From a bacterium (GTDB lineage Bacteria > Patescibacteriota > Patescibacteriia > UBA10025), in assembly GCA_021815445.1 (NCBI GenBank), contig JAKAGM010000001.1:659710-723709 (forward strand): a stretch of DNA of 64,000 nt, read 5' to 3'. Positions 10,601-58,200 of this stretch are shown here, one piece after another (the stretch's first letter is position 1; the number at the start of each line of letters is the position of its first letter). Position numbers and translations under genes: made by a program. The notes beneath the pieces are model-generated. The model had not been told where the DNA came from and made no database searches. It saw nothing but the letters and a program-made list of their open reading frames with translations.

Positions 10601-13600
10601 CTCGAGCTGGTAAAGACCAGGTCGGCACTCGATGAGGGGATACACGGCTGGCCGGAACAGTCGGAGGGACCGTTTGGACAGCGTTTCTTCAGATCGTTGG
10701 AGCATACGTTTACAGGCGTCAGCGATGCAATCAGCGTGCAGATGCCGTTGATGCAGTCTGAATCTTTCACGCAGGTTGCGCCGGTGTCTGAACACGCCTT
10801 GAGCCCTACGCATGCGCCCGTAATAGGATCGAGTTTGTTGCACGGCTGCCGTTCGAAGCACACTTGTTCCTGGCTTCCTGACGCGGCCTTCACCGTGGTC
10901 CCGGTCTTGCATTCCAGCCAGGTATTACATACCCTGTCGCGCTGGACTTTGACAAGCTGGTTAGAGTCGCAATCGGGGGCCGCCGGAGTCAGGGGATTGT
11001 TGTCGCAAGCTCCTGACGGGACACTCCCGTCATTTGTGCCCTTGGCATAGAATGTCGCCGGCGGAGAGTTTGTGTCGTAAAAAAGTCTGCATCCCTCTTG
11101 CTGGTTGACCACGCCGTTGCACGATTTCGTGTCTGTTGACTGGGCAAGATTGTAGTGCGCCGCACACGATGCTACGGGAACGCAGCTGCCGCCCGCGCAT
11201 TGGGGGTTGGCATTGCTCAGAACGCAGGGATGCCCGACACCGCATATGCCCTCGGGGTTAAGGATGTCGCATTCTTGCGCGTTGTGAGCCCCTCCGTTGC
11301 AGAACGCCGTCGTGTCGCAGAATGCTCCCGGCGAACCGGATGTTGCGCTGCACCGTCCGGCATTCGACTGGCCCGCCGGGATATTAACATCGCATCCTTT
11401 GGGATCGAGAGGATCGCGGTATTCTGTGCATCCGTTCTGCTCGGCGGGGCACGTCCCCACCATTCCGGGCCCCACAGATGAGACCGTGTTTTGCGGGCCG
11501 CAGCCTATGGTCGTGCCGGTAACAAACCAACCAGCCGTTTTGGTGCCCGACGGCGCCACATACTGGCATGTCCTGCCTCCGGGGTCCTTGAAATAGCTCA
11601 ACCCCGTATCGGTCTTGAATTCCTGACATCCGCTCTCTTCCTGGTGGCACAGCGAGGTCGCATATTGGTCGGGATCATTGATCAGATACGTTGTCTGGTA
11701 TCCGCTTACGACATTATCAGCGTTGATTGTCGGCTTGCCCATTTTGGTACAGCCCGCTTGCGCTGCCTGGCATTGCACCGCCGGGTCATTGACCACGGCA
11801 ACGAGCGTATCGCCGGGAATACTGATCGACTGCGGGAAAGGAACCGGCGTGAATGTATGAGATACTACATCATCATGAAGCAGCGTTACATCATTTCCGT
11901 CCACCGTTCCGTCGCCATTCATGTCCATAATAGCCCACGGGTCAGGCCTGTTGATGCCGGGATGGCATGTCTGTCCCGTGCCGCAGACCGCCGTGGGATC
12001 ATCAGGATTGCACGAAGTGGCCGTGTTTGCCAACGGCCCCGTCGTACACCTCCCGTCATAGTAGCTCTCAATGAGCTTAAGGTCTGTCTGGTCGACCACA
12101 AGATCGTTGTTATAGTCTCCGCGCGGCCGTTTCGTGACCTGGACGCTTTGGTCGAAAGGATAATCACCGTTATTCGTCTGGATCATCGCCTCACAGCCGA
12201 CAGCGTCGGATTTGCAGATCTTGGAGAATGATTTGAGATAGGAAACCTGGCCTTCGCGATCACGGTAGGCGCTGCAGTTCTCATATCCGGAACACTGCGT
12301 CGTCGTGCCCTGGACGCGGAAAATATCATCAGTGACTTCCTGCAGCTGGATGTTATCGAGGAAAAACGAATTGTTGCCGCCGATGAAGAGTATACTGCCC
12401 GCGGGGATGTCCTGGTTGACAAAGAGCGGCCCGAGAGAATACTGGTTCCAGTTTCCTTGGCGCGCTATGGCCGTCCCTGAGAATTTCGAGTTAGGAATCA
12501 TGACTCCTGTGCCGTCATACAGCGCGCTCTCAATGCTTGTGTCATTTGCGCCTCCGGCGGCCCAGAAGGTCAGGATGTACGAGTGGTCGCGTTGGATAAG
12601 GGTATCAATGACTGTCGAAGCGCCTGTCGGCAAAGGGAAGACTACCATCGAGTGGCCGCCTGCCTGGGCGGCATTCGTGCTTGGGTTGAGGGCCGGATCC
12701 GCATTGGATGACCATGGCGCGATAGTCCCTCCCTCAAAATCAGATGAAATAATCGTACGGACATTATTCCCCGCCGAGCCCTTGTATTCCCGACAGCCTG
12801 CGAATGCTGCGGAGCATGTCAGGCCTTCCCCGGGTACCATATGGTACGTTACGTTATTACCTGCCGCCGTATCTATAGAATTCTTAAACGGATGGCAGTC
12901 ATCGGAGACAAAGATGAGTTTCGAGCGAAGACGGTAGGTTACCAGCCCCGAAGCATCGTAAAATTCCGTGCAATCAGGGTTCTTTTGGAGATCGTTAACG
13001 GTGCAAACCGCCGCAAGATGATTTTCAACGATACCGTCGCCGTTCTCATCGAACGGGACGCCGTCGACGCAGTTGGGATACCTGTTGGTCGATGAAGGGG
13101 TATCGGGTCCGAGATTCGTACATGGGGCGTAGTTCCCTCCCGCTTCCGCTGTCTCGCTTCTTAGCAGTCTGAACTCTTTGAGCTGGTATCCTGACTCCTC
13201 GTTCCCCACCCATGAATAGTAGCTTTGCGCGTTTGATCCCGCGTCAGCGGGCTTCACGCACTGCCTGATGAAGCTGTAGTACTCCAGTCCCTCGCCGCCC
13301 CGTGCGACTTGGTCAAGATTCGTGTATTCCTCGCAGCCCACCTGGGTCGCCGGGCAGGACTTGCCGGTTGTAGAAACAAATGATACCGGCTCCTTTGCCG
13401 GACGTATCGGGGTATGGTCTATCGGCATCTCGCGGTACGCCTTGCATCCCACAAATGCCGCCGGGCACTGGTCGCATGAGCCCGGATCATTAGGATCGCA
13501 TGATGCTGAGTCGGTAATCTTGCCCGTCACCGGGATGCTCCCGTCAAGCGGAGTGTATAAATTACAGCCGACATCATCCATCGAACAGCTCTTTCTGGCG

Positions 13601-23199: not shown

Positions 23200-26100
23200 T
23201 CAAACCACAATACTCACCAGCCGTCCTTTAATGTATATGACTTTCTTCGGTTGCTTGCCGTCCAGCCATTTAAGCACTTTTTCGCTCGAGAGCGCAAGTT
23301 TCTTGGCTTCGTCCTCGGAAATATCTGAGGCAACTTTCATTTGGTCGCGGACTTTGCCGTTTATTTGGACTACAATAGTAATTTCGTCCTCGACGATCAA
23401 TTTTGGATCGAAAGAAGGCCACGGTTCTTTGGAAATACTTTCTTTGTGACCTAGCTGCTCCCAAAGTTCCTCTGAAAGGTGGGGGGCGAAGGGTGAAAGT
23501 AGTCGTAACAAAACTTCAAAATCTTGCTTTAAAAATTCGGCCGGTGCCTCTGCTACTGCATTCGTATACTTCATATATTCTGAAACAGCAGTGTTGAACT
23601 TGAACTGTTCGATGTCCACAGTGATCTTCTTAACTAACTGGTGTGTTCTTTTATTCATGGTCGCCATCGCAGGCGCGGAGACCTGCGCTGGCTGATCGAC
23701 AAATACATTCCATACTCTCTCCAAAAATCTTTTTACCCCGATCATCCCCTGCGTACTCCACGGCTTGGCGTCCTCGAATGGACCCATAAACATTTCATAC
23801 ATGCGCATGGTGTCTGCCCCGAACTTCTTGATGACTTCATCGGGATTGATGACGTTGCCCCGGGACTTGGACATCTTCTGTCCGTCTTCGCCGAGAATGA
23901 GCCCCTGGTTTTTTAACTTTGTGAACGGCTCGTCGCCGTGTTTCTTTACGAATGACTTTGGCACGACCTCAATGTCGCACAGGAACTTATAGATGAATCG
24001 AGCGTAGAGCAGGTGAAGTACTGCGTGTTCCGCACCGCCGATATACATATCTACTGGCAGCCATTTCTCTAGCTTTTTCGGATCGGCAAGCTTTTTGTCA
24101 TTCTTCGGATCGCAGTAGCGCAGGAAATACCAGTTCGATCCGGCCCACTGGGGCATGGTATTCGTCTCACGCTTTGCCGGCTTGCCGCACTTCGGGCATT
24201 TCACATTCACCCATTTTTCAATACTGGCCAAGGGCGACTCACCTGTGCCGGTGGGTTCGTACTTTTTTACGTTGGGAAGTTCGACGGGCAAATCTTTTTC
24301 GTGAACAGGATTCACTCCGACGGGCAGGGGGTTCTTTCCAACTATTTCTTCGAGAACTTCGGGGAATGTATATGCATGGCCATTTTTCAATGAGAAATGA
24401 TTGCGCCCGGGGAGGAGATGATAGTCGCCGCGGAGTTTCTTCTTATACCATTCCGGGATTTCGGCGGGAATGTACGCATCATTGTCCGAATAATAATATG
24501 AAATTTTTTCCGTGTTTTTTTGCACATCGGCGTACCGAAGTTCGGCCTCATGGAATTTCCTTTGCCAAGCCGCGGGATTATCGGGATGCTGCTTCTGGAA
24601 TTCGGTCCAATCCATCTCTGTGCTGGTTGGAGCCACTAAAATCAGTTTTTTGATCTTTTTCTTGCGTGATGCCAAAAAATACATTGCCGCGATGCCGCCG
24701 AGTGAATGACCGATCAGTATTGTATGTTCATCAAATGCATTCTTCAACGTTTCCAAAGCCGTTAACCATTGTTCACGGTCAGGCTGCTTCGAGTCAGGCA
24801 TATCGGGTACTATAACCTGATGTCCAAGTTCGCGTAGTTTGGTCGCCAACCAGTCATACCAGTTCGCCTTGCCATTGCTCCCCGTACCGTGAATAATCAC
24901 AATAGTTTCTTTTTTCTGCTTCCGACAATGTTCACAATGCACAATCGGTATCGGTTCGCCCCAGTACCGCTGTCGGCTAAATAGCCAATCGCGAAGTTTA
25001 TATTGCACTTTGAATCTGCCGCGACCGTCTTTTTCGAGACGCGCAATGATTTTTTTCTTACACTGGACCGTCGTCAATCCGTCGTACTCTCCTGAGTTTA
25101 TTGCTACTCCTTCGCCGATAAACGCCGCCGGCTTTACATAATATTGCCAAATTTCTTTGGCATTTAAATGGGTAACGGCATCCAATACCTTGTGTTCAGA
25201 CACCCAGACTGGCTCATGCTTTTCTTTTTCCTCATTGTGAATCTGATGTCGTGTCTCATCGACTAAATCAAACACGACACCGCTAGCCATGCCGTATCTG
25301 TTTTCATTCTTATGCTTGGCAAAAAAGGTGAAATGAGTCTGCCAGTTTATTTCCTCGACAAACTTGAGATTGATATAGCCTGTTTCTTCGGCTATTTCGC
25401 GTTTCGCGGCTGTTATCAAGTCCTCCCCGTCTTCTACTCCGCCGACGACAAACGATACCCAATCATATTTTTTCCACCGCAGGCAAAGGACGTCATTGTT
25501 CTTCGGATTCCTGACGATACCATACACGAGCTTGCGCCTCACCATCGGTTTGTCCGATCGCAATTTCAAGTCTTCGGTATTCTGAAAAAAAGGAGCCATC
25601 ACCTGCTTGACAGGCAGTGAATATTTTTTCGCAAACTCAAAGTCCCGCTGGTCATGCGCCGGCACCGCCATAATCGCGCCAGTGCCGTAAGACATCAAAA
25701 CGTAGTCCGCCGCCCATATAGGGATTTCCTGTCCATCAACAGGGCGAATCGCTTTTATCCCCTTAAGCTCAACGCCGGTTTTTACTTTCACTAAATCGGT
25801 TCTCTCTAAGTCCGACTTATTTACGGCGGAATGAATATATTTTTCAACTTCGCTTTTATTTTCAACCATGCTGAGGGCATCCTGGACAAGCGGGTGCTCA
25901 GGGGCAACCACCATATATGTAGCGCCGAATATCGTGTCGGGTCGCGTAGTAAAAACAGTGAGCTCCCTGGTTTGTAGTTTCGGGTTTTGAATTTTGAACA
26001 CGATTTCGGCGCCTTCGCTCTTCCCGATCCAGTTCTTCTGCAACAGTTTGATGTTCTCCGGCCAGTCAACTTTGTCTAAATCGTTCAGCAACCGTTCGAT

Positions 26101-26700
26101 GTACCGTTCGTCGGTGATTTTCACCAGCCACTGTTTGATTTTTTTCTTGGTGACGGGAGTCCCGCACCGTTCGCATTTGCCGTCGATGACCTCTTCGTTC
26201 GCCAGACCCGTCTTGTCTTTCGGGCACCAGTTGATCGGGGCGTCAGCCTCGTAGGCGAGGCCGTGCTCGAAAAGTTTGAGGAAGATCCACTGCGTCCATC
26301 GGTAATACTTCGGATCGGAGGTAATAACTTCACGATCCCAGTCATAGGAAAAGCCGAGCGACTGAATCTGCCGCCGCATGTTCTCGATGTTTTTCGCTGT
26401 CGTCACCGCGGGATGTGTGCCTGTTTTGAGGGCGTAGTTTTCCGCCGGAAGTCCGAATGCGTCGAACCCCATCGGGTGGAGCACCTCAAATCCTTTCATC
26501 CGCAGGTAGCGGGAATAAATATCCGACGCCGTGTATCCCTCGGGATGGCCGACATGCAGACCCTCGGCTGACGGATACGGGAACATGTCCAGAATGTACT
26601 TCTTTTCCCGTCGTGAAGTATCGCTGGCATGGAATGACTTCTCTTTTGCCCAACGTTCTTGCCACTTTTTTTCTATGCTCTGGTGGTCGTAACGGTCCAT
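23200..26700 (-). CDS. leuS: leucyl-tRNA synthetase with inserted NUDIX and alpha/beta-hydrolase domains
   Basis: HIGH motif (HVGHPEGY), KMSKS motif (KMSKSRGN), CP1 editing domain (TTRPDT, AHDQRD), anticodon-binding and C-terminal domains all present. 1166 aa versus ~800-880 for canonical bacterial LeuRS. Extra NUDIX box [23 protein letters not shown] and GHSLGG serine-hydrolase module. Confidence 0.9.
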
Positions 26701-34003: not shown

Positions 34004-37000
34004 TTACATCCCGTAGGCGGCAAAGATGCTGACACCGCCGCGGAACTTTGTATTGAGGGCAAAGAACCGGGAAATCACGCGGCCGTTTTGGTTGAATACG
34101 CTGATCTGCGGACCTAATCCCGCGCCGGGCCCTGTCACAATTTCCGCTTTACCGTCACCGTCAACGTCTGCGGCAAACATCGTGAAGCTTCCTTTCAGGC
34201 TTGAGCCGTAAGCGTTAAATTGCGACTTTGCCACTCCCTTGTTGTTGAAGACCCTGACCTGAGATATGGCGCCACCCATCGGCATAGCGATGAATTCGTT
34301 TGTGCCATCGCCTCCCATGTCCGCAACAGCCACATTAACTCCTCCTCTGAAGCCGCTTGGGAAGGCCATAAATCTCGCGAGTTGCTTGCCGTCTTTATTG
34401 AATGCTGCAACCTGGGGGCCGAGCCCTGTTTTCGGCGCTACAACGACATCGTCGGTACCGTCACCATTGATATCTCCCGTCGTCAGATTGTATCCGCCTC
34501 GAACTCCCACTGCATATGCGTTGAATCGTTTCACCAGTTTTCCATCACCATGGAAGATTGCAACCTCAGGACCGCCGTTTGATGCCGGTGTACCGATGAT
34601 ATCGGCTTTTCCGTCGCCATCGACATCGCTGACCGCGAGGTTGACCCCGCCTCGGAAGCCCGATCCGATGATGAAGAATTGTTTTAGGAGCTTGCCGTTG
34701 CCATCAAAGATGCGCACTTGAGGACCCGCGCCCGCAAGCGGGACAGCGATAATCTCATCTTTTCCGTTGCCATCGATATCAGCAACAGCGACATGAATTC
34801 CCGTTCTGAGACTCGAACCGTAGGCATTGAAATTCTTGAGTAACTTCCCGGCCTTAGTGAAGACGCGAATTTCCGGACCGGCGCCGACTCCGGGAGCAGT
34901 GACAATCTCGTTGGCCCCATCGCCGTTGACATCGCCAGTTGCCACCTCAAGCCCCACACGGAGAGATGAAGCGTAGGCGAAAAAGCTTACGACTTTCTTT
35001 CCGGTTTTGTCGGTGACATAAACCTGCGGACCGCCTTTTGACGCGGGAACCGTGGCTATGTCAGCCGTACCGAGACCAGCCGCCGCAGATCCGCCCGAAG
35101 CGACCACAAATGTCGTGAAGTGGTTAGTCTGAATAGTAATGGTATTCGAGTCCTTATCGACGGTGATGCCTATGGGGTCTTGGTACGCATTGGATGTCGA
35201 ATCGAAGTACTTGCTGACAAGCGTATCTTCGTTAATACCCAGTTCATCGAGCTGATCCTGCGTGTAAGTGAACTTGATCGTCACGTTTGAATTAAACGTG
35301 GTAATCGCATTGTTGCTTGAGTCAGTCGCGGTAAGTTCATACCCCACGCCGAATGGCTGGACGTTCTTCATCTTATACATATTGCCTACCGTCGGCGTTG
35401 CCGTAACGCTCACATTCGAGCCCGATGATCCGAGAGCTCCGGAAGGAATTGTGATTGTTACACCATTCTCAAGAGCTATTACCTGCGCCGATCCCGCGTC
35501 AAACGTGGAACTCACTGGTGAAGGAACGGTAAAGCTCGCACCCTTAAGGCTGAAATTCTGCGTGATGCTAGTCTGAGTAGAAATTGTAATTGTCGCTTCG
35601 TCGGATCGGTAGAACTTGTTGCCGTCAAAGCTGTCCGCTCCGCAGTGCCAAGTGCCTGCTTTGTAGTTGACCGAGTAGCTGCCTCCAAACTGCACAGGTC
35701 CGCCGGTGAATCCGCCATTTTCTTCCCAGCAGTGGACGAAGCCGATGTTGATCGGCACATTACCCACCTTAACGCTCCCGCTCATGGTCCCGAGCGCTCT
35801 GCCGAGTTTGAGCGTGATACTGGCAGTTGACGCACTGGTCAGATCAACTTTCTGAAAGTCTGCAGGTATGTACGAACTGCCGGGAGGTAACCCCATTCCG
35901 ACCTGATACCTGTGCCCCTTGAGGACATTCAAGGTGAATGTCCCGTCAGGATTGGTTTTGGTATCCGCATGAAGTTGGTTCTTGAAGCTCTCCTCAGTTT
36001 GGACGCTCTGGTTCTCTTGCTCTACGCCGTTGTCGGCGAAGACAAATGCGTCAATTCCGTTGCCGCTCGGATCAAGTACGCGTCCGGTGATTGTCGCATT
36101 GGCTTTGGTTACCGTGATATTGAGCGTCGTGGTTCCAGCAGCAATTGTTAATGATGTAGGATCAGGGGGTTTCATCATAAATCCGTTTCCAGGATTGATG
36201 TAGTACCCCATGTGATATCCGCTTCCAGAGAGAAGACTTACGCTAAATGTGCAGTCAGGCTTGATGTCTCCGCCTCTCCATGATCCGTTCTTTTCGAAGT
36301 GGACATCGCCGAACCAGCCGCCCGAAGAAGAACATGAGGTAATGCTGGCTCCATTCTGATCCAGAATTCTGCCTTGAACTGTCGCATCATTGCTTCTTAC
36401 TTGGATATTCTTGGTCGAAGTCGTATTCGCAAATACAGCTACATTTTGACTGTCAAGCGAAGAATATGGCGAGTTAGGGGGTGTACCGAGTGATAATGTA
36501 TAGGTTGACGCTACGGTGCTCGGCACACTTAAGGAGAACGAACCGTTCTGGCAGTCAACCGGACCGCCGTACCCGGGACCGGGGTTGCCGATAGTCGTGG
36601 CTGACGCCGGCTGTGCATTGATCCATGCGCAGAATCCAGTGATCACCGTTCCGGACTCATTAACGACAAATCCGCTGATAGTGGCATCGGCATATGTCAG
36701 CTGTATCGTGCCGACATTAATTGTTGCATTATCGTCGGTGACATTCGCATCGATTGGCTGGCCGCTGTAAACATATTTTGAATTGCGGCCGGGCCCCTGA
36801 TCAAGATTGACCCCCCACATACCGGCGGTAACCGCGAGAACAAAATTCCCGTTTGAATCACTCTGGGTATTGCTCCAGCCCGGCTGATTATGCATAAAGG
36901 CATTGAGGTATACGCCTCCGACACCGGTACCGTCGGATTTCACAACTTTTCCTGTTATTTTCGCTGATTTCGATTTCGCAGTGATCGTACCAACATTCTT

Positions 37001-38683
37001 CGTCTCATTGTCGCCTATAGTCACTGACATCTCAGGGAATGATAACGTGTTGTCAGGGCTAAAAACGCTCACCCGGTATGTTCCGGCTTTGACGTTCACG
37101 CTGAACGTGCCGTCTGGCCTGACCTGCGAGTTGTTACCGACACCGTCCTGAGTCCTCACGTCAACATTTGCATTTGTCATCGGCGAACCATCGGGTTTTA
37201 ATGCCCTCCCCGTGACTGAAGCGTTGGCAACAGTTACAGTTATGTTAAGTGTCTTGTTTTCCACTGCGGAATTTGTCGCAAAGTCAACCATCTGGGGCGG
37301 ACCGGAAAAAAACCAGTCAGGCGCGGGCGCCCCGGGGCCCATATTTGGATTGACCATAATGTTCCAGCTGCCTCCTGAGAGTGTCAGGGTGTAATTCCCG
37401 CTTGCATCCGTTGTTGCCTGGCTGAACCCTGATCCGTTTTTGTTTGCATTGATTTGCGCGCCAGCAACAGCCAAACCATTACTCTTAGTCACTTTTCCTG
37501 TCAGAAATTTTGACGCCTGAACAAAAGTGAGGTTCTTCACTACAACAGTTGCTCCAATAGTGATAGAAGCAGAATCGGGAGACACGTATCCGCTAGAACC
37601 CCATGGAGACATAACATCCAATTTATATGTCCCTGCGGGAAAACCGCCGATGAGATAGGTGCCATCCTGGCCGCTCTGGGCATTTTGGTTTACCGACCAA
37701 TCGTCAGTATGGATTTGGACGTTTGCATTCGCGACAGGTGTTGCCCCGTCCGGTGCATATACAGTACCTGTGACTTGGGCAGTAGTGAGGCGCACCTCGC
37801 CGACGTTGAGTAGTGTTCCTGAAGTTACGGAAATTGTCCGCGAAACAGGCGACGTGAAACTAAGGCCCTGGACCATGCATTGGAGAGTGTATGATCCGGT
37901 CGCCATGGTGCCAAATCTGAACACACCGCTAGGATCAGCATTTGTGTTCATCTGAACACTGTGGTCCTGGTTATAAATATTGCAGTTAACATTGCCACCA
38001 TGTGAAAAGTCGACGGCATTCCCGCTCGGATCTTTGATAGTACCGGTAACATTTGGAGCAGAAAGGCTGACGGTTTGGCCGGTGAGAACGGTGCCCGCAA
38101 AGCTCACCGTCAATGTTCCGGTCGTATAGGGCGAACTTTCCGGAGCTTGTGCTTCAATAATGTACGTCCCGCTTGCTAAACCGCCGAATTTAAAGTTTCC
38201 GCCGTCGTCAGTGTTGGTTCCTGAATTGAACGACCAGTCATTGGTCCTGATCATGACATTTGTTCCGGGAACAGGCGTTACTCCATCGGGATTTGTCACA
38301 GTACCGGTAATACTCGGCGTTGTAAGTTTGATATTTCCAAGGTCCACCGCCGAAGTATCAATAGTTATCAAAAAGGGCGCCGGTCCGGTGTAATTTCCGT
38401 CTGTTCCGGCATACGATACTTGGACAGTGTATTGTCCCGACGCAACATTCGTGATAGAAAACGTCCCATTATTATTCATTGGCCCGCCATTACCGGGTCC
38501 TGGATTCTTTGGCGAAAGGCTCACGAAACCGCCGGCCTGCGTGAGTGCGGCACCGGTAGGACTGACAACTGTTCCGCTGACCACTACGCCCGAGGCATGG
38601 ACAGTTTGCGGGTGGGCCGCTACGAGGGAAACGGCAATTGCCGCGACAGTGACCGCCCAGTAGAGATAAGATTTCTTATGCAT
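34004..38683 (-). CDS. giant (1559 aa) secreted protein: multiple carboxypeptidase-regulatory/Cna-B-like beta-sandwich repeats plus C-terminal FG-GAP-like beta-propeller
   Basis: Signal peptide (VTVAAIAVSLVAAHPQTVHA). More than 10 repeats of the type GTVTNPDGVTPVPGTNVMI...GTYIIEA. C-terminal 6-7 repeats such as DVNGDGANEIVTAPGVGAGPEIRVF and DIDGNGKDEIIAVPLAGAGPQVRIF (FG-GAP/VCBS-like). Confidence 0.8.
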   Translation of the reverse strand: MHKKSYLYWAVTVAAIAVSLVAAHPQTVHASGVVVSGTVVSPTGAALTQAGGFVSLSPKNPGPGNGGPMNNNGTFSITNVASGQYTVQVSYAGTDGNYTGPAPFLITIDTSAVDLGNIKLTTPSITGTVTNPDGVTPVPGTNVMIRTNDWSFNSGTNTDDGGNFKFGGLASGTYIIEAQAPESSPYTTGTLTVSFAGTVLTGQTVSLSAPNVTGTIKDPSGNAVDFSHGGNVNCNIYNQDHSVQMNTNADPSGVFRFGTMATGSYTLQCMVQGLSFTSPVSRTISVTSGTLLNVGEVRLTTAQVTGTVYAPDGATPVANANVQIHTDDWSVNQNAQSGQDGTYLIGGFPAGTYKLDVMSPWGSSGYVSPDSASITIGATVVVKNLTFVQASKFLTGKVTKSNGLAVAGAQINANKNGSGFSQATTDASGNYTLTLSGGSWNIMVNPNMGPGAPAPDWFFSGPPQMVDFATNSAVENKTLNITVTVANASVTGRALKPDGSPMTNANVDVRTQDGVGNNSQVRPDGTFSVNVKAGTYRVSVFSPDNTLSFPEMSVTIGDNETKNVGTITAKSKSAKITGKVVKSDGTGVGGVYLNAFMHNQPGWSNTQSDSNGNFVLAVTAGMWGVNLDQGPGRNSKYVYSGQPIDANVTDDNATINVGTIQLTYADATISGFVVNESGTVITGFCAWINAQPASATTIGNPGPGYGGPVDCQNGSFSLSVPSTVASTYTLSLGTPPNSPYSSLDSQNVAVFANTTSTKNIQVRSNDATVQGRILDQNGASITSCSSSGGWFGDVHFEKNGSWRGGDIKPDCTFSVSLLSGSGYHMGYYINPGNGFMMKPPDPTSLTIAAGTTTLNITVTKANATITGRVLDPSGNGIDAFVFADNGVEQENQSVQTEESFKNQLHADTKTNPDGTFTLNVLKGHRYQVGMGLPPGSSYIPADFQKVDLTSASTASITLKLGRALGTMSGSVKVGNVPINIGFVHCWEENGGFTGGPVQFGGSYSVNYKAGTWHCGADSFDGNKFYRSDEATITISTQTSITQNFSLKGASFTVPSPVSSTFDAGSAQVIALENGVTITIPSGALGSSGSNVSVTATPTVGNMYKMKNVQPFGVGYELTATDSSNNAITTFNSNVTIKFTYTQDQLDELGINEDTLVSKYFDSTSNAYQDPIGITVDKDSNTITIQTNHFTTFVVASGGSAAAGLGTADIATVPASKGGPQVYVTDKTGKKVVSFFAYASSLRVGLEVATGDVNGDGANEIVTAPGVGAGPEIRVFTKAGKLLKNFNAYGSSLRTGIHVAVADIDGNGKDEIIAVPLAGAGPQVRIFDGNGKLLKQFFIIGSGFRGGVNLAVSDVDGDGKADIIGTPASNGGPEVAIFHGDGKLVKRFNAYAVGVRGGYNLTTGDINGDGTDDVVVAPKTGLGPQVAAFNKDGKQLARFMAFPSGFRGGVNVAVADMGGDGTNEFIAMPMGGAISQVRVFNNKGVAKSQFNAYGSSLKGSFTMFAADVDGDGKAEIVTGPGAGLGPQISVFNQNGRVISRFFALNTKFRGGVSIFAAYGM

Positions 38684-54790: not shown

Positions 54791-55132
54791 ATGTTCACGT
54801 TGTTTCCGAAGTATCTCAACGTCGGATCGCGGGGCCCAGCCGTCCTTTGGTTACAGCAGTTGCTGTATGCTCTGGATTTCTGTGCTGATTGCCTCCCTTG
54901 TGATGGTGAGTACGACACTGTCACTGCCAAGAACGTTGAGATGCTACAGCGTTTGCTCGGAGTCACCCCCGATGGCAACTTCGGCCCAGAGACCCGTGCC
55001 GCCCTGAAGGCACACATGAAAATCGATGTTGAGGCGATTCACTTCGCAGCAACTTTCTACATCGCACCCAACGGCCCCGGAGTTCATCCGGCCATGCCCG
55101 AGGGAGATCACGTTAACTCAAGCGGCGAATAA
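54791..55132 (+). CDS. small peptidoglycan-binding-domain (PG_binding_1-like) protein
   Basis: GSRGPAVLWLQQLL...LGVTPDGNFGPETRAALKA matches the PG-binding repeat. GGAGGG RBS. No signal peptide. Confidence 0.65.
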   Translation: MFTLFPKYLNVGSRGPAVLWLQQLLYALDFCADCLPCDGEYDTVTAKNVEMLQRLLGVTPDGNFGPETRAALKAHMKIDVEAIHFAATFYIAPNGPGVHPAMPEGDHVNSSGE

Positions 55133-55154
55133 CCGTTCCCCCGTCCTTCCTACC

Positions 55155-55202
55155 GGCCACCCCAAACACATCCACGCGGTGTACATGGGGTGGCCGTTTT
55201 TC
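55155..55202 (+). terminator. rho-independent terminator
   Basis: GGCCACCCC...GGGGTGGCC 9-bp stem followed by GTTTTTC. Confidence 0.55.
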
Positions 55203-55322
55203 TTATGTAATGTAAATTACTTTGGCGAACTGCGGCCTAGTGGAGGACGGCGAAATCATGTCATGAAAAACGAACACGGGTGAGGGGGGGTATCCTGAGT
55301 TGATACTGAAACTTCGGATCGA

Positions 55323-56177
55323 CTATTGACGGCGTACGCTGTACGGCGTACGCACGCAAGTATCAAGTTTGCGATGCACATATGACACCATCGTGAGAAG
55401 ATCAATCGCATCCCTTTCCTCAAGCTTCCAGACTATTTTTGGCGCATGTGCGTGGGGATTTCGGAAGGCTCCAAAAATGCCTTTGAGTAGGTTTACGAAG
55501 CCTTTCTGTTCCGACTGCTCACTTTCCAATTCAAGCCTGTTTAGAGCGAGAAGGGGCTGATTTATCGAGAACGCCTCATCGAACAATGTTGCCCCGTCGG
55601 TACTCAGGCCAGTCATAGACCTGATCCGTTCCGTGATACCCTTCGCGGCTTCCAAGACAGCATGGAAGTAATTGTTCTGGATCAGTTCTGAGCGGCAGTA
55701 CTTTAGTACTTCCGCATGTACTTCTCTACCTTGCAATTTGTAACGTAGGGATTTGGCTTTTTCTTCGGCTTCCTCCAGCGTGGCCGCCTTGGGTATTTGG
55801 CTAAATCGGCCATGCTTACCGAGCGACAGTCCGTAAAACGATAACACTTTGTTGAGATCGGATCGCGACGCTTCGAAAAATTCAGGATTTCCCACAAAGC
55901 GAACGGGATCCATGACAACCATAATGAACCGGCAGACTGCATTCGCGCAATGGTCTGAAAGCTGCTGCGCAACAAGCGTGGATCGTATTCTTCTCCACTT
56001 GGTGCTAGATTCAGCCTCTTGCTCCACAATCTTGCACTGAGTCAACAAGGGTCCAATCTCGGCGCCGGTCACAGCCTCGCCGAGGACTCTAGCGATCTGC
56101 TCAATAGCGGATGTGGGAAAGGATGGTATCGTCGACCCCATGATGTTTTTGCGAAAGAGAAATGGCGAAGTAGTCAA
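55323..56177 (-). CDS. HEPN-like (Rx4H motif) Abi/TIGR02391-like protein
   Basis: 284 aa, alpha-helical. C-terminal FRNPHAHAP contains an R-x4-H HEPN-type motif. Flanked by a tRNA island and strong terminators. Assignment rests on the motif and overall similarity recalled for abortive-infection HEPN families. Confidence 0.5.
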   Translation of the reverse strand: MTTSPFLFRKNIMGSTIPSFPTSAIEQIARVLGEAVTGAEIGPLLTQCKIVEQEAESSTKWRRIRSTLVAQQLSDHCANAVCRFIMVVMDPVRFVGNPEFFEASRSDLNKVLSFYGLSLGKHGRFSQIPKAATLEEAEEKAKSLRYKLQGREVHAEVLKYCRSELIQNNYFHAVLEAAKGITERIRSMTGLSTDGATLFDEAFSINQPLLALNRLELESEQSEQKGFVNLLKGIFGAFRNPHAHAPKIVWKLEERDAIDLLTMVSYVHRKLDTCVRTPYSVRRQ

Positions 56178-56193
56178 TACTCTTCCTGCCCCA

Positions 56194-56265
56194 TGGGTCG
56201 TGGAGGACTCGAACCTCCAACCTTAGGCTTAAGAGGCCTCTGCTCTACCATTGAGCTAACGACCC
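56194..56265 (-). tRNA. tRNA-Lys(CTT)
   Basis: Acceptor GGGTCGT/ACGACCC. D-arm GCTC-AATGGTA-GAGC. Anticodon stem (G)AGGC/GCCT(A), loop CTCTTAA. T-arm GGAGG-TTCGAGT-CCTCC. Flanks CTGCCCCA/TGGGGCAG could extend the acceptor helix by 8 bp. Confidence 0.85.
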
Positions 56266-56304
56266 ATGGGGCAGGAAGAAATATCACCGACTCAGAGACT
56301 GTAA

Positions 56305-56562
56305 TTAATTAGGATTGTTGCCTTGAATGATTTTCTTAATACTATTATGTTTCTTGAGTGATTTCAAGTACCGCTCTCGCAAGTAAGCTTGCTGTATTGT
56401 ATCAAATTCTTCGATATGAGCTAGCCTCCATGGACGACGCGATTTTGTTGAGAGAGAGTAACCTGCCTGGTGTTCTCGAAAACGCCGCTTCGGGTTGTTT
56501 GAAACACCAATATAATAGGAACCATCATTCTGGCTCTCCAAAACGTACAAATAATGTTTCAT
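56305..56562 (-). CDS. small GIY-YIG nuclease-domain protein
   Basis: MKHYLYVLESQNDGSYYIGVSNNPKRRFREHQAG matches the GIY-x10-YIG...R...E pattern. About 86 aa from MKHY. The longer track ORF extends through an upstream hairpin region. Confidence 0.7.
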   Translation of the reverse strand: MKHYLYVLESQNDGSYYIGVSNNPKRRFREHQAGYSLSTKSRRPWRLAHIEEFDTIQQAYLRERYLKSLKKHNSIKKIIQGNNPN

Positions 56563-56630
56563 ATCAACCTTGGGTCCCGGCCCCGCTTCCGGCGGGGCCG
56601 AGGATCCTCGATGCCGGAACGGCATCGGGA

Positions 56631-56701
56631 CTTAAGAGGCCCCTGCTCTACCATTGAGCTAACGACCCATGGCACAGGAAGAAATATCACCGACCGGCAC
56701 A
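56631..56701 (-). pseudogene. diverged duplicate of the tRNA-Lys(CTT) 5' half (positions 1-38) plus its upstream flank
   Basis: About 63-71-nt block near-identical to 56228-56292 (3 mismatches). Contains acceptor 5' strand, D-arm, and an anticodon stem-loop with compensatory stem (GGGGC/GTCCC). No T-arm or 3' acceptor strand follows. Instead hairpins GATGCCG-ttc-CGGCATC and GGCCCCGC-cggaa-GCGGGGCC follow. Confidence 0.5.
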
Positions 56702-56770
56702 TAGCAACGAAATGGCTCGTGTAGAATGATTGTTGTATAAAAAAACTTCTTCGTCAAGGAATGACTACTT

Positions 56771-56791
56771 GCGCCCGGAGGGAGTCGAGTC
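56771..56791 (-). repeat. 21-nt duplicate of the 3' end of tRNA-Arg(TCG) (att-site-like scar)
   Basis: TCGACTCCCTCCGGGCGCAAG on the minus strand is identical to the 3' T-arm/acceptor end of the tRNA at 56923-56995, 130 bp upstream. Confidence 0.5.
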
Positions 56792-56922
56792 CTGGGCAGC
56801 GCCAGATGCTTCGCTTGCTCGCATCTGTCGACGCTCACTTCGTTTCGCTTCTGCCCTTCGACTCCTCGGCTATTTGGAAAGAGAAACCTTTAAGAAACAG
56901 TAAAGTAGCTATGAGCAATTCT

Positions 56923-56995
56923 TGCGCCCGGAGGGAGTCGAACCCCCAACCCCATGGTCCGAAGCCATGTACTCTATCCATTGAGCTACGGGCGC
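56923..56995 (-). tRNA. tRNA-Arg(TCG)
   Basis: Acceptor GCGCCCG/CGGGCGC. Anticodon stem CATGG/CCATG, loop CTTCGGA. T-arm GGGGG-TTCGACT-CCCTC. Confidence 0.8.
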
Positions 56996-57177
56996 ATAAC
57001 TGAAACTGCCGCCATAGTGTAACAATCATCGTACCAAATTTCAAGCTTTAATCTGCTAGAATAATCTTCCAGTCAAACTTTGCGGAACATCACCCCTGCC
57101 TTATCCACATGCTTCGTTATCGCTAAGCTTTGTGGTATACTTTCACCTGTTATTATTTTTTTCACATTGAGAACTCT

Positions 57178-58200
57178 ATGCCAAAAGTTACGAAAAAATC
57201 CTTGCTTCGGGAAACCATTGAACACATTAACATAAAGAAACTCAACGCCAAGCCGTTGATAAGTGCGTATAGCAAAATGTCATTTTCCGCACGCGACCTG
57301 GCGCGGGCGACGGAGATTTACAACATGATGCTTGCCGACAAGTCAGCTTCGGTTTGGCTCACCCTGGCCGGCTCCACCAGTGCCGCCGGCTGTATGCAGG
57401 TCTATGTGGACATGGTAAAAAACAACATGATTGACGCCATTGTCGCTACCGGCGCCTCTATCGTCGATATGGACTTTTTTGAGGCGCTCGGCTTTAAGCA
57501 CTATCGCGGCACGCCATTTATCGACGACGGCCTTTTGCGCTCGCTCTACATTGACCGCATTTACGACACGTTTATTAATGAGGAGGACTTGCAGGTTTGC
57601 GACCAGACTATCGCAAAAATCGCCGACTCGCTTGAGCCGCGGCCGTACTCGTCGCGGGAATTCATCTGGGAAATGGGTAGGTACCTTGCCAAACATTCTA
57701 AGAAAAAAGATTCCCTGGTCCAGGCGTGTTATGAGCATAACGTCCCGATTTTCTGTCCGGCCTTCTCCGATTCTTCGGCAGGATTCGGTATCGTGTACCA
57801 CCAATGGCATCACCGCGATAGCCACGTGTCGATTGATTCAGCTAAGGACTTCCTCGAGCTGACCATGGTCAAGATGAAAAGCAAACAAACCGGCCTGCTG
57901 ATGATCGGCGGCGGCGTGCCAAAAAACTTCGCCCAGGACACCGTAGTCTGCGCGGAAATCCTCGGCAAAGAAGCTCCGGTGCACAAGTATGCTGTGCAAA
58001 TTACTGTTGCTGATGTCCGAGACGGCGCCTGCTCGTCTTCAACACTGAAAGAAGCCAGCTCCTGGGGCAAAGTCAGTACTGTCCATGAGCAGATGGTGTT
58101 CGCCGAGGCGACAATGGCGCTGCCGCTGCTGGCGGCTGACGCCTACCAAACAGGCCACTGGAAAACCAGGAAAAAGCACAACCTGGCAAAGATTTTTTAA
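57178..58200 (+). CDS. deoxyhypusine synthase-like protein
   Basis: LTLAGSTSAAG, IDAIVATGASIVDMDFFEALG, LLMIGGGVPKNF motifs typical of the DHS/homospermidine synthase family. Start at MPKVTKK (57178). Confidence 0.75.
   Translation: MPKVTKKSLLRETIEHINIKKLNAKPLISAYSKMSFSARDLARATEIYNMMLADKSASVWLTLAGSTSAAGCMQVYVDMVKNNMIDAIVATGASIVDMDFFEALGFKHYRGTPFIDDGLLRSLYIDRIYDTFINEEDLQVCDQTIAKIADSLEPRPYSSREFIWEMGRYLAKHSKKKDSLVQACYEHNVPIFCPAFSDSSAGFGIVYHQWHHRDSHVSIDSAKDFLELTMVKMKSKQTGLLMIGGGVPKNFAQDTVVCAEILGKEAPVHKYAVQITVADVRDGACSSSTLKEASSWGKVSTVHEQMVFAEATMALPLLAADAYQTGHWKTRKKHNLAKIF

Follow-up and report, generated by a model that had tools for sequence, protein, structure and literature searches.

The 64,000 nt stretch of DNA analyzed here, which we call the window, belongs to a Patescibacteria (CPR) genome from a Peribacteria-like lineage. 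On its minus strand, a partial copy of a tRNA-Lys(CTT) gene is followed by two GC-rich hairpins, a small GIY-YIG nuclease gene and the intact tRNA-Lys(CTT) gene. We consider that this region is probably, with a probability of about 0.7, one copy of a minimal selfish element that colonizes tRNA genes, formed by the nuclease gene and the adjoining GC-rich hairpin or hairpins. Elements of this kind are apparently very widespread yet undescribed: We have found no description in the open-access literature of an association of this kind between GIY-YIG genes and tRNA genes. An initial sequence-only reading of the region had suggested the scar of a GIY-YIG-associated mobile insertion into a tRNA gene. 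Two results support it: The corresponding locus of a related genome (L002) is empty, and the same architecture is found at many tRNA species in a large, unbiased sample of the family.

Comparison of the window with itself reveals a direct repeat of 64 nt with three mismatches (56228-56291 and 56631-56694; blastn E-value within the window 2.4e-24). The repeat contains a 26-nt leader and nucleotides 1-38 of tRNA-Lys(CTT); the two GC hairpins and an intact single-domain GIY-YIG gene coding for 85 amino acids lie between its copies. The second copy of the leader and tRNA 5' half described in the sequence-only reading is therefore present, and the similarity survives realignment. The extent then proposed, nucleotides 1-38, is correct for the repeat itself, but the tRNA copy reaches position 43. 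The bases GTCCC (56631-56627) pair with the copy's own GGGGC to form a complete 5-bp anticodon stem, so the partial copy ends at tRNA position 43/44. The compensatory change noticed earlier in this stem is real, since G28:C42 in the partial copy stands in place of A28:T42 in the intact gene. Identity between the copy and the intact tRNA is 95% and falls to none past position 43/44, with no graded decay. The features of the region are listed in Table 1.

Table 1. Features of the tRNA-Lys region and its neighborhood (window coordinates).
Feature	Position	Strand	Evidence or remark
Trailer of the intact tRNA-Lys, exact reverse complement of the leader	56181..56193	-	Gives an acceptor helix of 21 bp in all
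Intact tRNA-Lys(CTT), anticodon stem A28:T42, no encoded CCA	56194..56265	-	ARAGORN; Rfam 73.1 bits
Leader of the intact tRNA-Lys, second repeat copy	56266..56291	-	Perfect pairing of its final 14 nt with the trailer
Single-domain GIY-YIG nuclease gene, 85 aa and stop	56305..56562	-	Pfam PF01541
GGGACCCA, resembling the tRNA-Lys acceptor 3' strand and discriminator (ACGACCCA)	56571..56578	-	Sequence; weak evidence
GC hairpin 2, GGCCCCGC-cggaa-GCGGGGCC	56579..56599	-	Recurrent family type CCCCGCC...GGCGGGG
12-nt palindrome CGAGGATCCTCG, between the two hairpins	56599..56610	.	Sequence
GC hairpin 1, GATGCCG-ttc-CGGCATC	56610..56626	-	Begins at the base directly after the tRNA-derived sequence
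Pseudo-tRNA, tRNA-Lys(CTT) positions 1-43 (acceptor 5' strand, D-arm, complete anticodon arm)	56627..56668	-	
26-nt leader, upstream copy (24/26 nt as in 56266-56291)	56669..56694	-	Repeat analysis, blastn
Candidate sigma-70-like promoter TTGACG-17-AACAAT, upstream of the partial tRNA copy	56729..56757	-	Consensus scan only
tRNA-Arg(TCG) (56922-56996), 132-nt hairpin-containing spacer without ORF, 21-nt copy of the tRNA 3' end	56768..56996	-	

The upstream copy lacks the complete cloverleaf, the T-arm and the paired acceptor of a functional tRNA. Its Rfam tRNA score is 29.0 bits, exactly the gathering score, a value reached because hairpin 1 serves as a false T-arm; the acceptor is mispaired in the Rfam match and ARAGORN calls no tRNA at this position. 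This agrees with the previous claim that the copy has neither T-arm nor 3' acceptor. A complete tRNA-like molecule ending in GGGACCCA was also considered and rejected as the preferred fold: The cloverleaf-like fold that uses this sequence has an energy of -44.0 kcal/mol, against -56.4 kcal/mol for the minimum free energy (MFE) structure. Judged by its match to the consensus, the candidate promoter would probably drive a transcript, starting at about 56722, that includes the fragment, the hairpins, the GIY-YIG gene and tRNA-Lys.

The intact tRNA-Lys gene is contiguous according to both ARAGORN and Rfam. Besides this gene and the partial copy, no other match to tRNA-Lys is found in the window, in particular no separate 3' half gene. 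The leader and trailer of the intact gene form the inverted repeat that had been noticed before, but its length was underestimated: Instead of 8 bp there is a perfect 21-bp helix (56181-56201 with 56259-56279), made up of the 7-bp acceptor stem and 14 further pairs. None of the 133 other tRNAs surveyed has an acceptor helix extended by more than 6 bp, so this helix is unique to the locus and is ruled out as a family trait.

Both stable hairpins are found after the partial copy, as reported in the sequence-only reading. They are placed upstream of the nuclease gene, with none downstream, and no further copies of either are present in the 64-kb window at up to three mismatches. Hairpin 2 differs by one loop base from the hairpin beside a homologous gene in another locus (L194), and similar hairpins are found in three more loci (L150, L166 and L200). 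The 531-nt region folds far better than shuffled sequences (z=-8.4), a value inflated by the intact tRNA and the repeats.

The GIY-YIG ORF had also been correctly recognized: It runs from 56562 to 56305, with an AAGG ribosome-binding site 5 nt ahead of its ATG. The protein matches Pfam PF01541 with E=1.7e-17 and 63.9 bits (cutoff 22.6) over profile positions 1-75 of 78. It is a bare domain, spanning residues 2-73 of 85, with no DNA-binding or accessory domain. Residues Y6, Y17, G19, R27, H31 and E63 are invariant in an alignment of 41 family sequences; the window protein, as the first row of this alignment, carries all of them by construction. The nearest solved structures are the UPF0213 proteins 1ywl (1.1e-8) and 1zg2 (2.8e-7), followed by the SLX1 homologue 7wme (7.8e-4). 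No NCBIfam model matches the protein, and matches to PHROGs are weak and confined to the catalytic core. The family is large (5,091 representatives). Phage records contain hardly any members (5 of 50,697), and a phage origin was rejected. An exact-sequence look-up of the 85-aa and 106-aa versions of the ORF found no record, and a word-index homology search gave a single distant match. As all relatives found for the window nuclease have at most 55% identity, the exact element lacks a second copy that could define its ends. This lack of a close relative counts against the selfish-element reading.

The comparison with a related genome proposed in the sequence-only reading is provided by L002, which is syntenic: It has tRNA-Lys(CTT), tRNA-Arg(TCG) and the deoxyhypusine synthase gene in the same order. 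Its tRNA-Lys is simple and single, with no GIY-YIG gene, half copy or hairpins. In L118, another CPR genome, the same Arg/Lys locus has a pseudogenized GIY-YIG copy directly after tRNA-Arg(TCG). The locus is thus polymorphic for the presence of the gene. G28 and C42 of the window fragment match the L002 and L118 orthologues, and A28:T42 of the intact window gene is the derived state. The flanks are too diverged to demonstrate orthology with the promoter and flank of the L002 tRNA-Lys, which would tell the resident repeat copy.

The tRNA-Arg(TCG) of the window is found 650 nt upstream, and its 3'-terminal 21 nt are repeated exactly at 56768-56788. Judged by its sequence, this unit has the layout of a 3'-type cassette (see below) minus the nuclease gene, and it is possibly a related neighbor. 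Its spacer was examined as a decayed GIY gene, an idea that we discard, as no coding similarity is found. The same layout is present at the tRNA-Arg of L002, but with a diverged fragment and an unrelated spacer. The window cluster also has an extra 1.5 kb after tRNA-Lys relative to L002.

The family was surveyed in 120 metagenomic loci, all of them confirmed by HMM. They were collected with a degenerate DNA pattern, hand-built from coding motifs only and checked first at the protein level. An intact tRNA gene on the same strand is found within 150 nt of 49 of the 85 genes which could be evaluated on both sides (58%), when roughly 1-2% is expected; an opposite-strand tRNA is found in only two cases. 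All isoacceptor types are represented among these neighbors. The remaining 42% have no intact tRNA within 150 nt, which counts against the selfish-element reading. A direct repeat bracketing the gene exceeds the 95th percentile of mismatched-locus controls in 53 of 87 loci, and the control maximum in 29 of 87.

Where they overlap an intact tRNA, these repeats form two mirror-image classes. In the 5' class, to which the window belongs, the repeat starts at tRNA position 1 and ends at positions 14-39. In the 3' class it ends at the tRNA 3' end and starts at positions 44-47 in 11 of 20 cases, and the tRNA fragment is downstream of the ORF. GC hairpins are enriched 4.2-fold within 130 nt of family genes. 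They adjoin the fragment in 25 of the 27 typed loci (16/17 of 3' type, 9/10 of 5' type) and are never found on the intact-tRNA side only; the position of hairpin 1 in the window matches that in the nine 5'-type loci. In an independent sample of 150 family representatives, many proteins begin with a translated T-arm or end with a translated D-arm, and one of them (P0016) has D-arm translations on both sides, as in the window.

Elements of the family move between tRNA species. Genes of a cluster with at least 60% identity are neighbors of at least nine different tRNA species, and the conserved element starts right after the CCA. Some lineages keep to a single tRNA isotype (Pro, Met). Tandem arrays and partial or truncated second copies are found in four loci (L174, L180, L001 and L129). 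Bacteroidota have many copies. Neither an integrase nor a recombinase or transposase is present within 6 kb.

We propose the following mechanism, in which the nuclease substrate, the cut site, the repair route producing the duplication and the co-transcription are inferred. Position 43/44, where the anticodon stem meets the variable loop, would be the point at which the element went into the tRNA-Lys(CTT) gene. The displaced resident piece (the leader and nucleotides 1-43) would remain upstream as a pseudo-tRNA, followed by the hairpins and the nuclease gene, and a complete leader and tRNA-Lys would be rebuilt directly downstream, so that the cell keeps its essential tRNA. Expression of the nuclease gene probably depends on the tRNA promoter, with tRNA processing freeing its message from the co-transcript. 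If it acts like the characterized Ssn nucleases, the protein would bind its hairpin in single-stranded DNA and nick a few nucleotides to the 5' side; tRNA genes might be suitable targets because their single-stranded form folds into hairpin-rich cloverleaves. Since the nuclease alone is incapable of strand transfer, insertion must depend on host repair. The break could be repaired by copying a donor that bears the cassette, one end being matched by tRNA homology and the other closed by end joining, and such one-sided homology would leave a partial duplicate. Many fragment/tRNA pairs in the family are 100% identical, which duplication of the target site, as by a staggered cut, would fit more simply. 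The G28:C42 pair common to the fragment and the orthologues would fit a donor-borne segment or a later compensatory change.

Other explanations have to be weighed against this selfish element. The pseudo-tRNA and the hairpins might be mainly a functional RNA leader of the nuclease mRNA, kept by selection and not a passive scar. It could act as a tRNA-like signal for processing or stability, for example by giving RNase P or RNase Z a site of entry, or as a structure that protects the 5' end. The anticodon arm of the fragment, fully paired through compensatory changes, speaks for this idea, as do the strong folding of the region, with the inflation already mentioned, and the highly regular order of fragment, hairpin and ORF across the family. 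The ORF also starts 8 nt after GGGACCCA, similar to the 16-nt gap between tRNA-Leu and the ORF in L001. Nevertheless, folding as a tRNA would cost 12 kcal/mol relative to the MFE, with the acceptor mispaired and the T-loop missing, and the 26-nt leader duplication is left unexplained. A 3'-type fragment, being downstream of the ORF, cannot be a 5' leader, and there are no close homologues in which covariation could be seen. We find this explanation unlikely as the main one, but it is compatible with a selfish element and both could hold. A domesticated host nuclease, structure-specific like Ssn or Slx1, is a poorer candidate still. Its tRNA fragments would be by-products of its activity and not of selfish spread, while it limited, for example, the recombination of incoming ssDNA or resolved conflicts between replication and transcription at tRNA genes. 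SsnA does modulate transformation in Neisseria (PMC11893778) and Slx1 maintains rDNA repeats (PMC1564403); the window ORF is intact with all its invariant residues, and the lineages faithful to one isotype would agree with a host function. Against it, the gene is absent from the syntenic L002 and pseudogenized in L118, it forms tandem arrays with truncated second copies, and close relatives lie beside at least nine tRNA species; these features suggest a mobile, dispensable gene.

Other origins for the partial copy seem very improbable. If an ordinary tandem duplication of tRNA-Lys had been followed by decay of the upstream copy, with the GIY-YIG gene between both by chance, the upstream copy might represent an entire tRNA in degenerate form, in which GAGGATCCTC would be a T-stem without its loop and GGGACCCA the acceptor 3' strand; its score at the Rfam threshold agrees with this. 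But identity drops abruptly from 95% to none at 43/44, L002 has no duplicate, and the layout of fragment, hairpin, GIY gene and tRNA is repeated at many unrelated tRNA genes with a fixed hairpin position. The att remnants of an integrase island, a group I intron or a split tRNA deserve even less credit. Integrases classically target tRNA genes, and islands end in partial tRNA copies (PMC9897764); the repeated 3' end of tRNA-Arg, together with the additional 1.5 kb relative to L002, also shows that the cluster is a hot spot. However, the insert has only 403 nt, the 6 kb around it contain no integrase or recombinase, and the duplicated part is the 5' part with the leader, the opposite of integrase att duplications. 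The sequence-only reading had mentioned an intron or an intein-like homing element and, as less likely, a split or processed tRNA precursor. These suggestions are not supported: Rfam detects no group I intron or other ribozyme at E up to 10, nothing points to an intein, and the intact tRNA is contiguous, with no 3' half gene. In an Rfam search of positions 55800-57200 no family other than tRNA comes near its gathering threshold.

The selfish-element reading may be extended to a broader one, which we put forward tentatively and with less than even odds. Single-domain GIY-YIG genes with their hairpins would be unrecognized and extremely abundant minimal mobile elements, invading tRNA genes specifically, across bacteria. 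They would break these genes where arms meet (26/27, 43/44) or at the 3' end, with their own hairpin swapped in and a working tRNA regenerated. The mechanism would be a hydrolytic, repair-dependent cut-and-copy, guided by the single-stranded-DNA cloverleaf of tRNA genes. If so, nucleases of the Ssn/UPF0213 type would have a natural target, and there would be an explanation for many of the stray tRNA fragments and strange tRNA predictions that genomes contain.

Small stand-alone GIY-YIG proteins form thousands of families, most of them annotated only as "GIY-YIG nuclease family protein". Hairpin-directed cleavage of ssDNA, their first biochemical function to be described, dates only from 2025, and no general natural target or life cycle was given with it. 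The selfish-element reading, if true, would give these genes both. It would also identify a source for the tRNA fragments and chimeric pseudo-tRNAs that contaminate tRNA annotation, such as the window fragment, exactly at the Rfam threshold, or a chimera in L177 which ARAGORN calls tRNA-Val(AAC). An element with a single protein of 85 amino acids could then live inside an essential gene of the reduced CPR genomes and let its host survive. A large set of natural pairs of nuclease and hairpin, possibly with tRNA-gene specificity, would become usable as ssDNA tools.

Several known systems share some of these features. As in integrase insertions, the target is an essential tRNA gene that ends up intact, and the far boundary carries part of the tRNA as a direct repeat. 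The window element differs in having no recombinase, in its size of about 0.3-0.4 kb instead of many kilobases, and in that the 5' or the 3' part may be duplicated, with boundaries at arm junctions (26/27, 43/44). The IS200/IS605 and REP/RAYT elements are also tiny, with subterminal hairpins recognized in single-stranded DNA by a small nuclease. They depend on HUH tyrosine transposases, which form covalent intermediates and carry out strand transfer. A GIY-YIG hydrolase cannot do this, and host repair must finish the insertion; moreover, those elements leave no tRNA fragments. The free-standing GIY-YIG homing endonucleases of phages resemble the window in the presence of a nuclease gene among tRNA genes. 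SegB of phage T4 cleaves within the tRNA gene region, drives the inheritance of its own locus and, as recent work has shown, also promotes segmental amplification in this region (PMC2330249, PMC13096335), to which the tandem units and partial duplicates of our survey are analogous. Seg proteins are larger and have a DNA-binding domain, unlike the bare domain of the window protein; they move by allelic homing between phage genomes and leave no tRNA fragments. The family of the window protein, as stated above, hardly occurs in phages.

The UPF0213/Slx1-like proteins (EF2693, 1ywl; BH0048, 1zg2; PMC1564403) have the same minimal domain with no extensions and are the nearest by sequence among solved structures, a sequence relationship which would count against a reading based on Ssn. 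They are described as vertically inherited proteins of housekeeping type, with no tRNA linkage, hairpins or mobility. The closest known system, by analogy, appears to be the Ssn family of hairpin-recognizing GIY-YIG nucleases, site-specific for ssDNA, described in 2025 for SsnA of Neisseria meningitidis (CDD cd10448; PMC11893778), for which an IS-like layout of hairpin, gene and hairpin was noted. No link to tRNA genes was reported, the word tRNA being absent from the main text of that work (PMC11893778). The window hairpins are on one side, next to a tRNA fragment, and are not dispersed within the 64 kb as the NTS motifs are in Neisseria; Ssn motifs, inverted repeats of 20-50 nt, are often found on both sides. 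Even so, SsnA and the window protein are both small single-domain GIY-YIG proteins (94 and 85 aa) without a DNA-binding domain, and their genes are physically linked to short GC-rich motifs that form hairpins. The NTS core TCCCGC...GCGGGA itself is shared by the hairpins of several surveyed family members (L162 and L188).

The observation made at this locus is confirmed. Minimal GIY-YIG nuclease-hairpin modules are associated with tRNA genes widely and in a regular manner, and this locus is one example. Its features are listed in the Table. The sequence-only reading had described a duplicate of the 5' half of tRNA-Lys, leader included: It is a direct repeat of 64 nt with 3 mismatches (blastn E=2.4e-24 within the window). 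The compensatory change in the anticodon stem, which is G28:C42 in the partial copy and A28:T42 in the intact tRNA-Lys, was also described correctly, and both stable hairpins are found where they had been placed, between the partial copy and the ORF. The GIY-YIG ORF is present next to the tRNA, with 85 codons instead of the 86 aa proposed.

Features of the cassette at tRNA-Lys(CTT) in the window
Feature	Position	Strand	Remarks
Promoter-like site	56757-56729	minus	
Upstream leader copy	56694-56669	minus	26 nt
Partial tRNA-Lys(CTT)	56668-56627	minus	
Hairpin 1	56626-56610	minus	GATGCCG-ttc-CGGCATC
Palindrome	between hairpin 1 and hairpin 2		CGAGGATCCTCG, 12 nt
Hairpin 2	56599-56579	minus	GGCCCCGC-cggaa-GCGGGGCC
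GGGACCCA, then ribosome-binding site	between hairpin 2 and ORF	minus	AAGG
GIY-YIG ORF	56562-56305	minus	85 codons, Pfam E=1.7e-17
Spacer	between ORF and second leader	minus	13 nt
Second leader copy	56291-56266	minus	26 nt
Intact tRNA-Lys(CTT)	56265-56194	minus	73.1 bits, Rfam
Trailer	56193-56181	minus	13 nt

The partial copy extends past the repeat and, by the pairing of its GTCCC with its own GGGGC, retains the whole anticodon arm. Its tRNA homology ends sharply at position 43/44, where hairpin 1 starts. The GIY-YIG gene and each of the hairpins are found only once in the 64-kb window. Co-transcription of the cassette from the tRNA promoter is plausible. The partial copy does not qualify as a tRNA: ARAGORN does not call it, Rfam gives 29.0 bits, which is its threshold, only by taking hairpin 1 as a false T-arm, and a cloverleaf-like fold with GGGACCCA as its end is less stable than the MFE structure by 12 kcal/mol. 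An Rfam scan of the locus places no intron or other RNA family besides tRNA near its gathering threshold, and a group I intron, suggested earlier as a candidate, is not supported.

A profile-free scan of 1.8 billion representatives (E<=1e-3) detects 5,091 members of the protein family, nearly all of them bare domains of 80–120 aa; their identity to the window protein does not exceed 55%. The invariant positions in an alignment of 41 sequences, which includes this protein, take in Y6, Y17, G19, R27, H31 and E63, so the window gene looks functional. Among solved structures, the UPF0213 proteins 1ywl and 1zg2 are closest, and SLX1 comes next. Many representatives have N-terminal extensions which are translated tRNA T-arms (VVGSNPT, GFESRP, EVEGSIPF), and others have C-terminal tails which are translated D-arms (SSTGRA, GVAQPG, AELVDALDS). 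The representative P0016 has D-arm translations at both sides, as in the window, and P0002 is a tandem of two tRNA-like-GIY units.

For the survey we have used a degenerate DNA pattern made of coding motifs only, which matches 85 of 151 representatives and, in the window, the gene alone. It retrieves 120 metagenomic contigs with a GC content of 33 to 72%, all of them (120/120) HMM-confirmed. Flanking sequence of 230 nt or more is available on both sides of 85 genes, and for 49 of them (58%) an intact tRNA lies on the same strand within 150 nt (38/99 upstream, 22/104 downstream); the frequency of non-adjacent tRNAs along these contigs predicts about 1–2%. Only two adjacent tRNAs are on the opposite strand, and every isoacceptor class is represented. 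The 37 evaluable loci which lack a nearby intact tRNA still show an about 60-fold enrichment of orphan T-arm motifs near the gene (7 loci). We have also searched for repeats shared by the upstream and downstream flanks (450 nt each) of every gene, with mismatched loci as controls. Same-strand repeats bracketing the gene exceed the 95th percentile of the controls in 53/87 cases, and the control maximum in 29/87.

Repeats which overlap a tRNA form two mirror-image classes. In the 3'-type, the intact tRNA is followed by the nuclease gene and by a tRNA copy which runs from position 44–47 (11/20) to the 3' end plus 0–7 nt. In the 5'-type, to which the window belongs, a copy of position 1 to 14–39 is followed by the nuclease gene and the intact tRNA. 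At 3'-type loci, the stop codon of the ORF lies within a conserved TAGAGC, which is the 3' strand of a D-stem; a GC hairpin takes the place of the anticodon arm, and a perfect copy of positions 44–76 follows. Two such loci, L190 and L085, have gene and hairpin in common, and at each of them the fragment matches the adjacent tRNA-Pro isoacceptor perfectly. At 5'-type loci, the upstream pseudo-tRNA is identical to its neighbour, and one or two GC hairpins break it up or complete it: In L188, nt 1–26 are followed by a hairpin replacing the anticodon arm and by nt 44–52, L150 and L192 have the hairpin in the D-loop, and L123, L087 and L148 have two hairpins, as in the window. The breakpoints cluster at arm junctions.

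Within 130 nt of the genes, strong GC hairpins reach a density of 3.73/kb vs. 0.89/kb, a 4.2-fold enrichment. Recurrent types are TCCCG...CGGGA, CCCCGCC...GGCGGGG and CCTGCCTGCC...GGCAGGCAGG; hairpin 2 of the window and the hairpin next to the L194 homologue differ in a single base of the loop. A hairpin adjoins the fragment in 16/17 3'-type and 9/10 5'-type loci, and in none of these typed loci (17 and 10) is it found on the intact-tRNA side alone. The module sits inside or against tRNA genes, with a partial tRNA copy past the hairpin and a working tRNA at the opposite side.

Such cassettes can seed false or odd tRNA annotations; the window fragment scores exactly at the Rfam tRNA threshold. 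At L177 (2279-2633), a "tRNA-Val(AAC)" called by ARAGORN directly after the GIY gene is probably a chimeric pseudo-tRNA, as the 33 nt at its end are identical in sequence to the 3' part of the tRNA-Ile upstream.

The module moves between tRNA genes. A cluster of 14 proteins (at least 60% identity) adjoins at least 9 different tRNA species, and in its alignment conservation starts directly past the tRNA CCA and stops just past the ORF. In this promiscuous cluster (L113, L115, L128, L171, L195 and others) the element starts after the encoded CCA with GCCTTCGC, which pairs with GCGAAGGC 30–60 nt downstream, so that a conserved hairpin abuts the tRNA 3' end; these loci have no tRNA fragment. Other clusters are limited to a single isotype (Pro, Met). 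Tandem units are found in L174 (three), L180 and L169 (two each), and truncated second copies in L001 and L129. The family is nearly absent from phage records. The whole of L118, a more distant CPR contig, reads on the minus strand PilT, tRNA-Arg(TCG), a GIY gene with an in-frame stop TAA, tRNA-Lys(CTT) and, past a long GC hairpin, a 3' fragment of tRNA-Lys which starts at about position 24, reaches the 3' end and has a changed acceptor strand: The same tRNA pair bears a decaying cassette in a second lineage.

The deoxyhypusine synthase beside the cassette assigns the window to Patescibacteria; it is 83% identical to those of Peribacteria/Peregrinibacteria-type MAGs, including L002, where the order tRNA-Lys(CTT), tRNA-Arg(TCG), synthase is conserved. 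The tRNA-Lys of L002 is plain, with no nuclease gene, 5' copy, hairpins or leader/trailer pairing. This comparison with a relative lacking the gene, proposed in the sequence-only reading, shows that the insertion happened in the window's lineage, and together with the recurrence across the family it supports the scar of a GIY-YIG-associated mobile insertion. The surrounding genes are housekeeping ones (ClpP, RNase Y, YmdB, HU, PilT), and no recombinase gene has been found within 6 kb.

The tRNA-Lys/tRNA-Arg pair is, in these CPR genomes, a hot spot where gene content changes. The window has 1.5 kb (54791-56177) between tRNA-Lys and HU, coding for a Hypoth_Ymh (PF09509) protein and a small peptidoglycan-binding-domain ORF; in L002, HU lies about 80 nt past tRNA-Lys, so the 1.5 kb is a second insertion at the window's tRNA-Lys. 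L002 has in turn a 298-aa ORF between the two tRNAs (462-1358) and a 373-aa ORF between tRNA-Arg and synthase (1688-2809), both absent from the window. In the window (56768-56996, minus strand), tRNA-Arg(TCG) is followed by a 132-nt spacer with a hairpin and no ORF; past it, 21 nt from the 3' end of this tRNA are repeated exactly. The layout is the same in L002 (1390-1618, minus strand), but with a diverged fragment and an unrelated spacer there. It resembles a 3'-type cassette which lacks the nuclease gene, and may be a non-autonomous derivative or else an old scar. Deoxyhypusine-synthase-like proteins are 67–83% identical across Patescibacteria, Bacteroidales, Smithella, Rickettsiales, Omnitrophota and DPANN archaea (L002-L081), unusually high values for such distant groups, which suggest horizontal spread. 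The window also contains four very large minus-strand ORFs: 7636-16233, 34004-38683, 3914-7582 and 23200-26700 (2865, 1559, 1222 and 1166 aa).

As a mechanism, we suggest that, in single-stranded DNA, the nuclease would recognise both its own hairpin and those arms of tRNA genes which resemble hairpins. It would nick next to these, and host repair would copy the cassette from a donor; tRNA homology would exist on one side of the break only, the other end being joined non-homologously, and the resident tRNA piece would be kept as a fragment. G28:C42 is found in the tRNA-Lys of L002 and of L118, as in the window fragment and not in the window's intact gene, which is expected if the fragment is the displaced resident piece. 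A28:T42 might also be a later compensatory change in the working gene. Target duplication by a staggered cut, instead of copying from a donor, is an alternative which explains more simply the frequent 100% identity of fragment and tRNA.

The inverted repeat around the intact tRNA-Lys, noted earlier as 8 bp, is really a perfect 21-bp leader/trailer helix (56181-56201/56259-56279), that is, the acceptor stem plus 14 bp. It is seen at this locus alone: None of 133 other surveyed tRNAs exceeds 6 extra bp. Speculatively, the helix may have arisen by snap-back DNA synthesis: After a break at the 3' end of the tRNA, this end would fold back on the acceptor stem and the leader would serve as template for its extension, with exactly ACGACCCA+TGGGGCAGGAAGA as the product. 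The helix may alternatively mark the boundary with the extra 1.5 kb absent from L002.

We have found no report in the open-access literature which links small GIY-YIG genes with tRNA genes or fragments, and the association is apparently undescribed. Three known systems are partial analogues, each differing from the window cassette in a defining feature: T4 SegB, a GIY-YIG homing endonuclease which cuts within a cluster of tRNA genes and favours amplification there (PMC2330249, PMC13096335), integrase insertions, which regenerate the tRNA and leave a partial copy, and the hairpin-guided IS200/IS605. The closest described system is the Ssn family, although the main text of its description nowhere mentions tRNA (PMC11893778). 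Its members are single-domain GIY-YIG proteins, SsnA having 94 aa and belonging to cd10448. The DNA which Ssn proteins bind is a hairpin repeat (NTS, core TTCCCGCG...CGCGGGAA), in single-stranded form only; they cleave a few nt to its 5' side, and their genes are mostly hairpin-flanked, in an IS-like layout (PMC11893778). The NTS core is also present in several of the hairpins we have surveyed (L162, L188).
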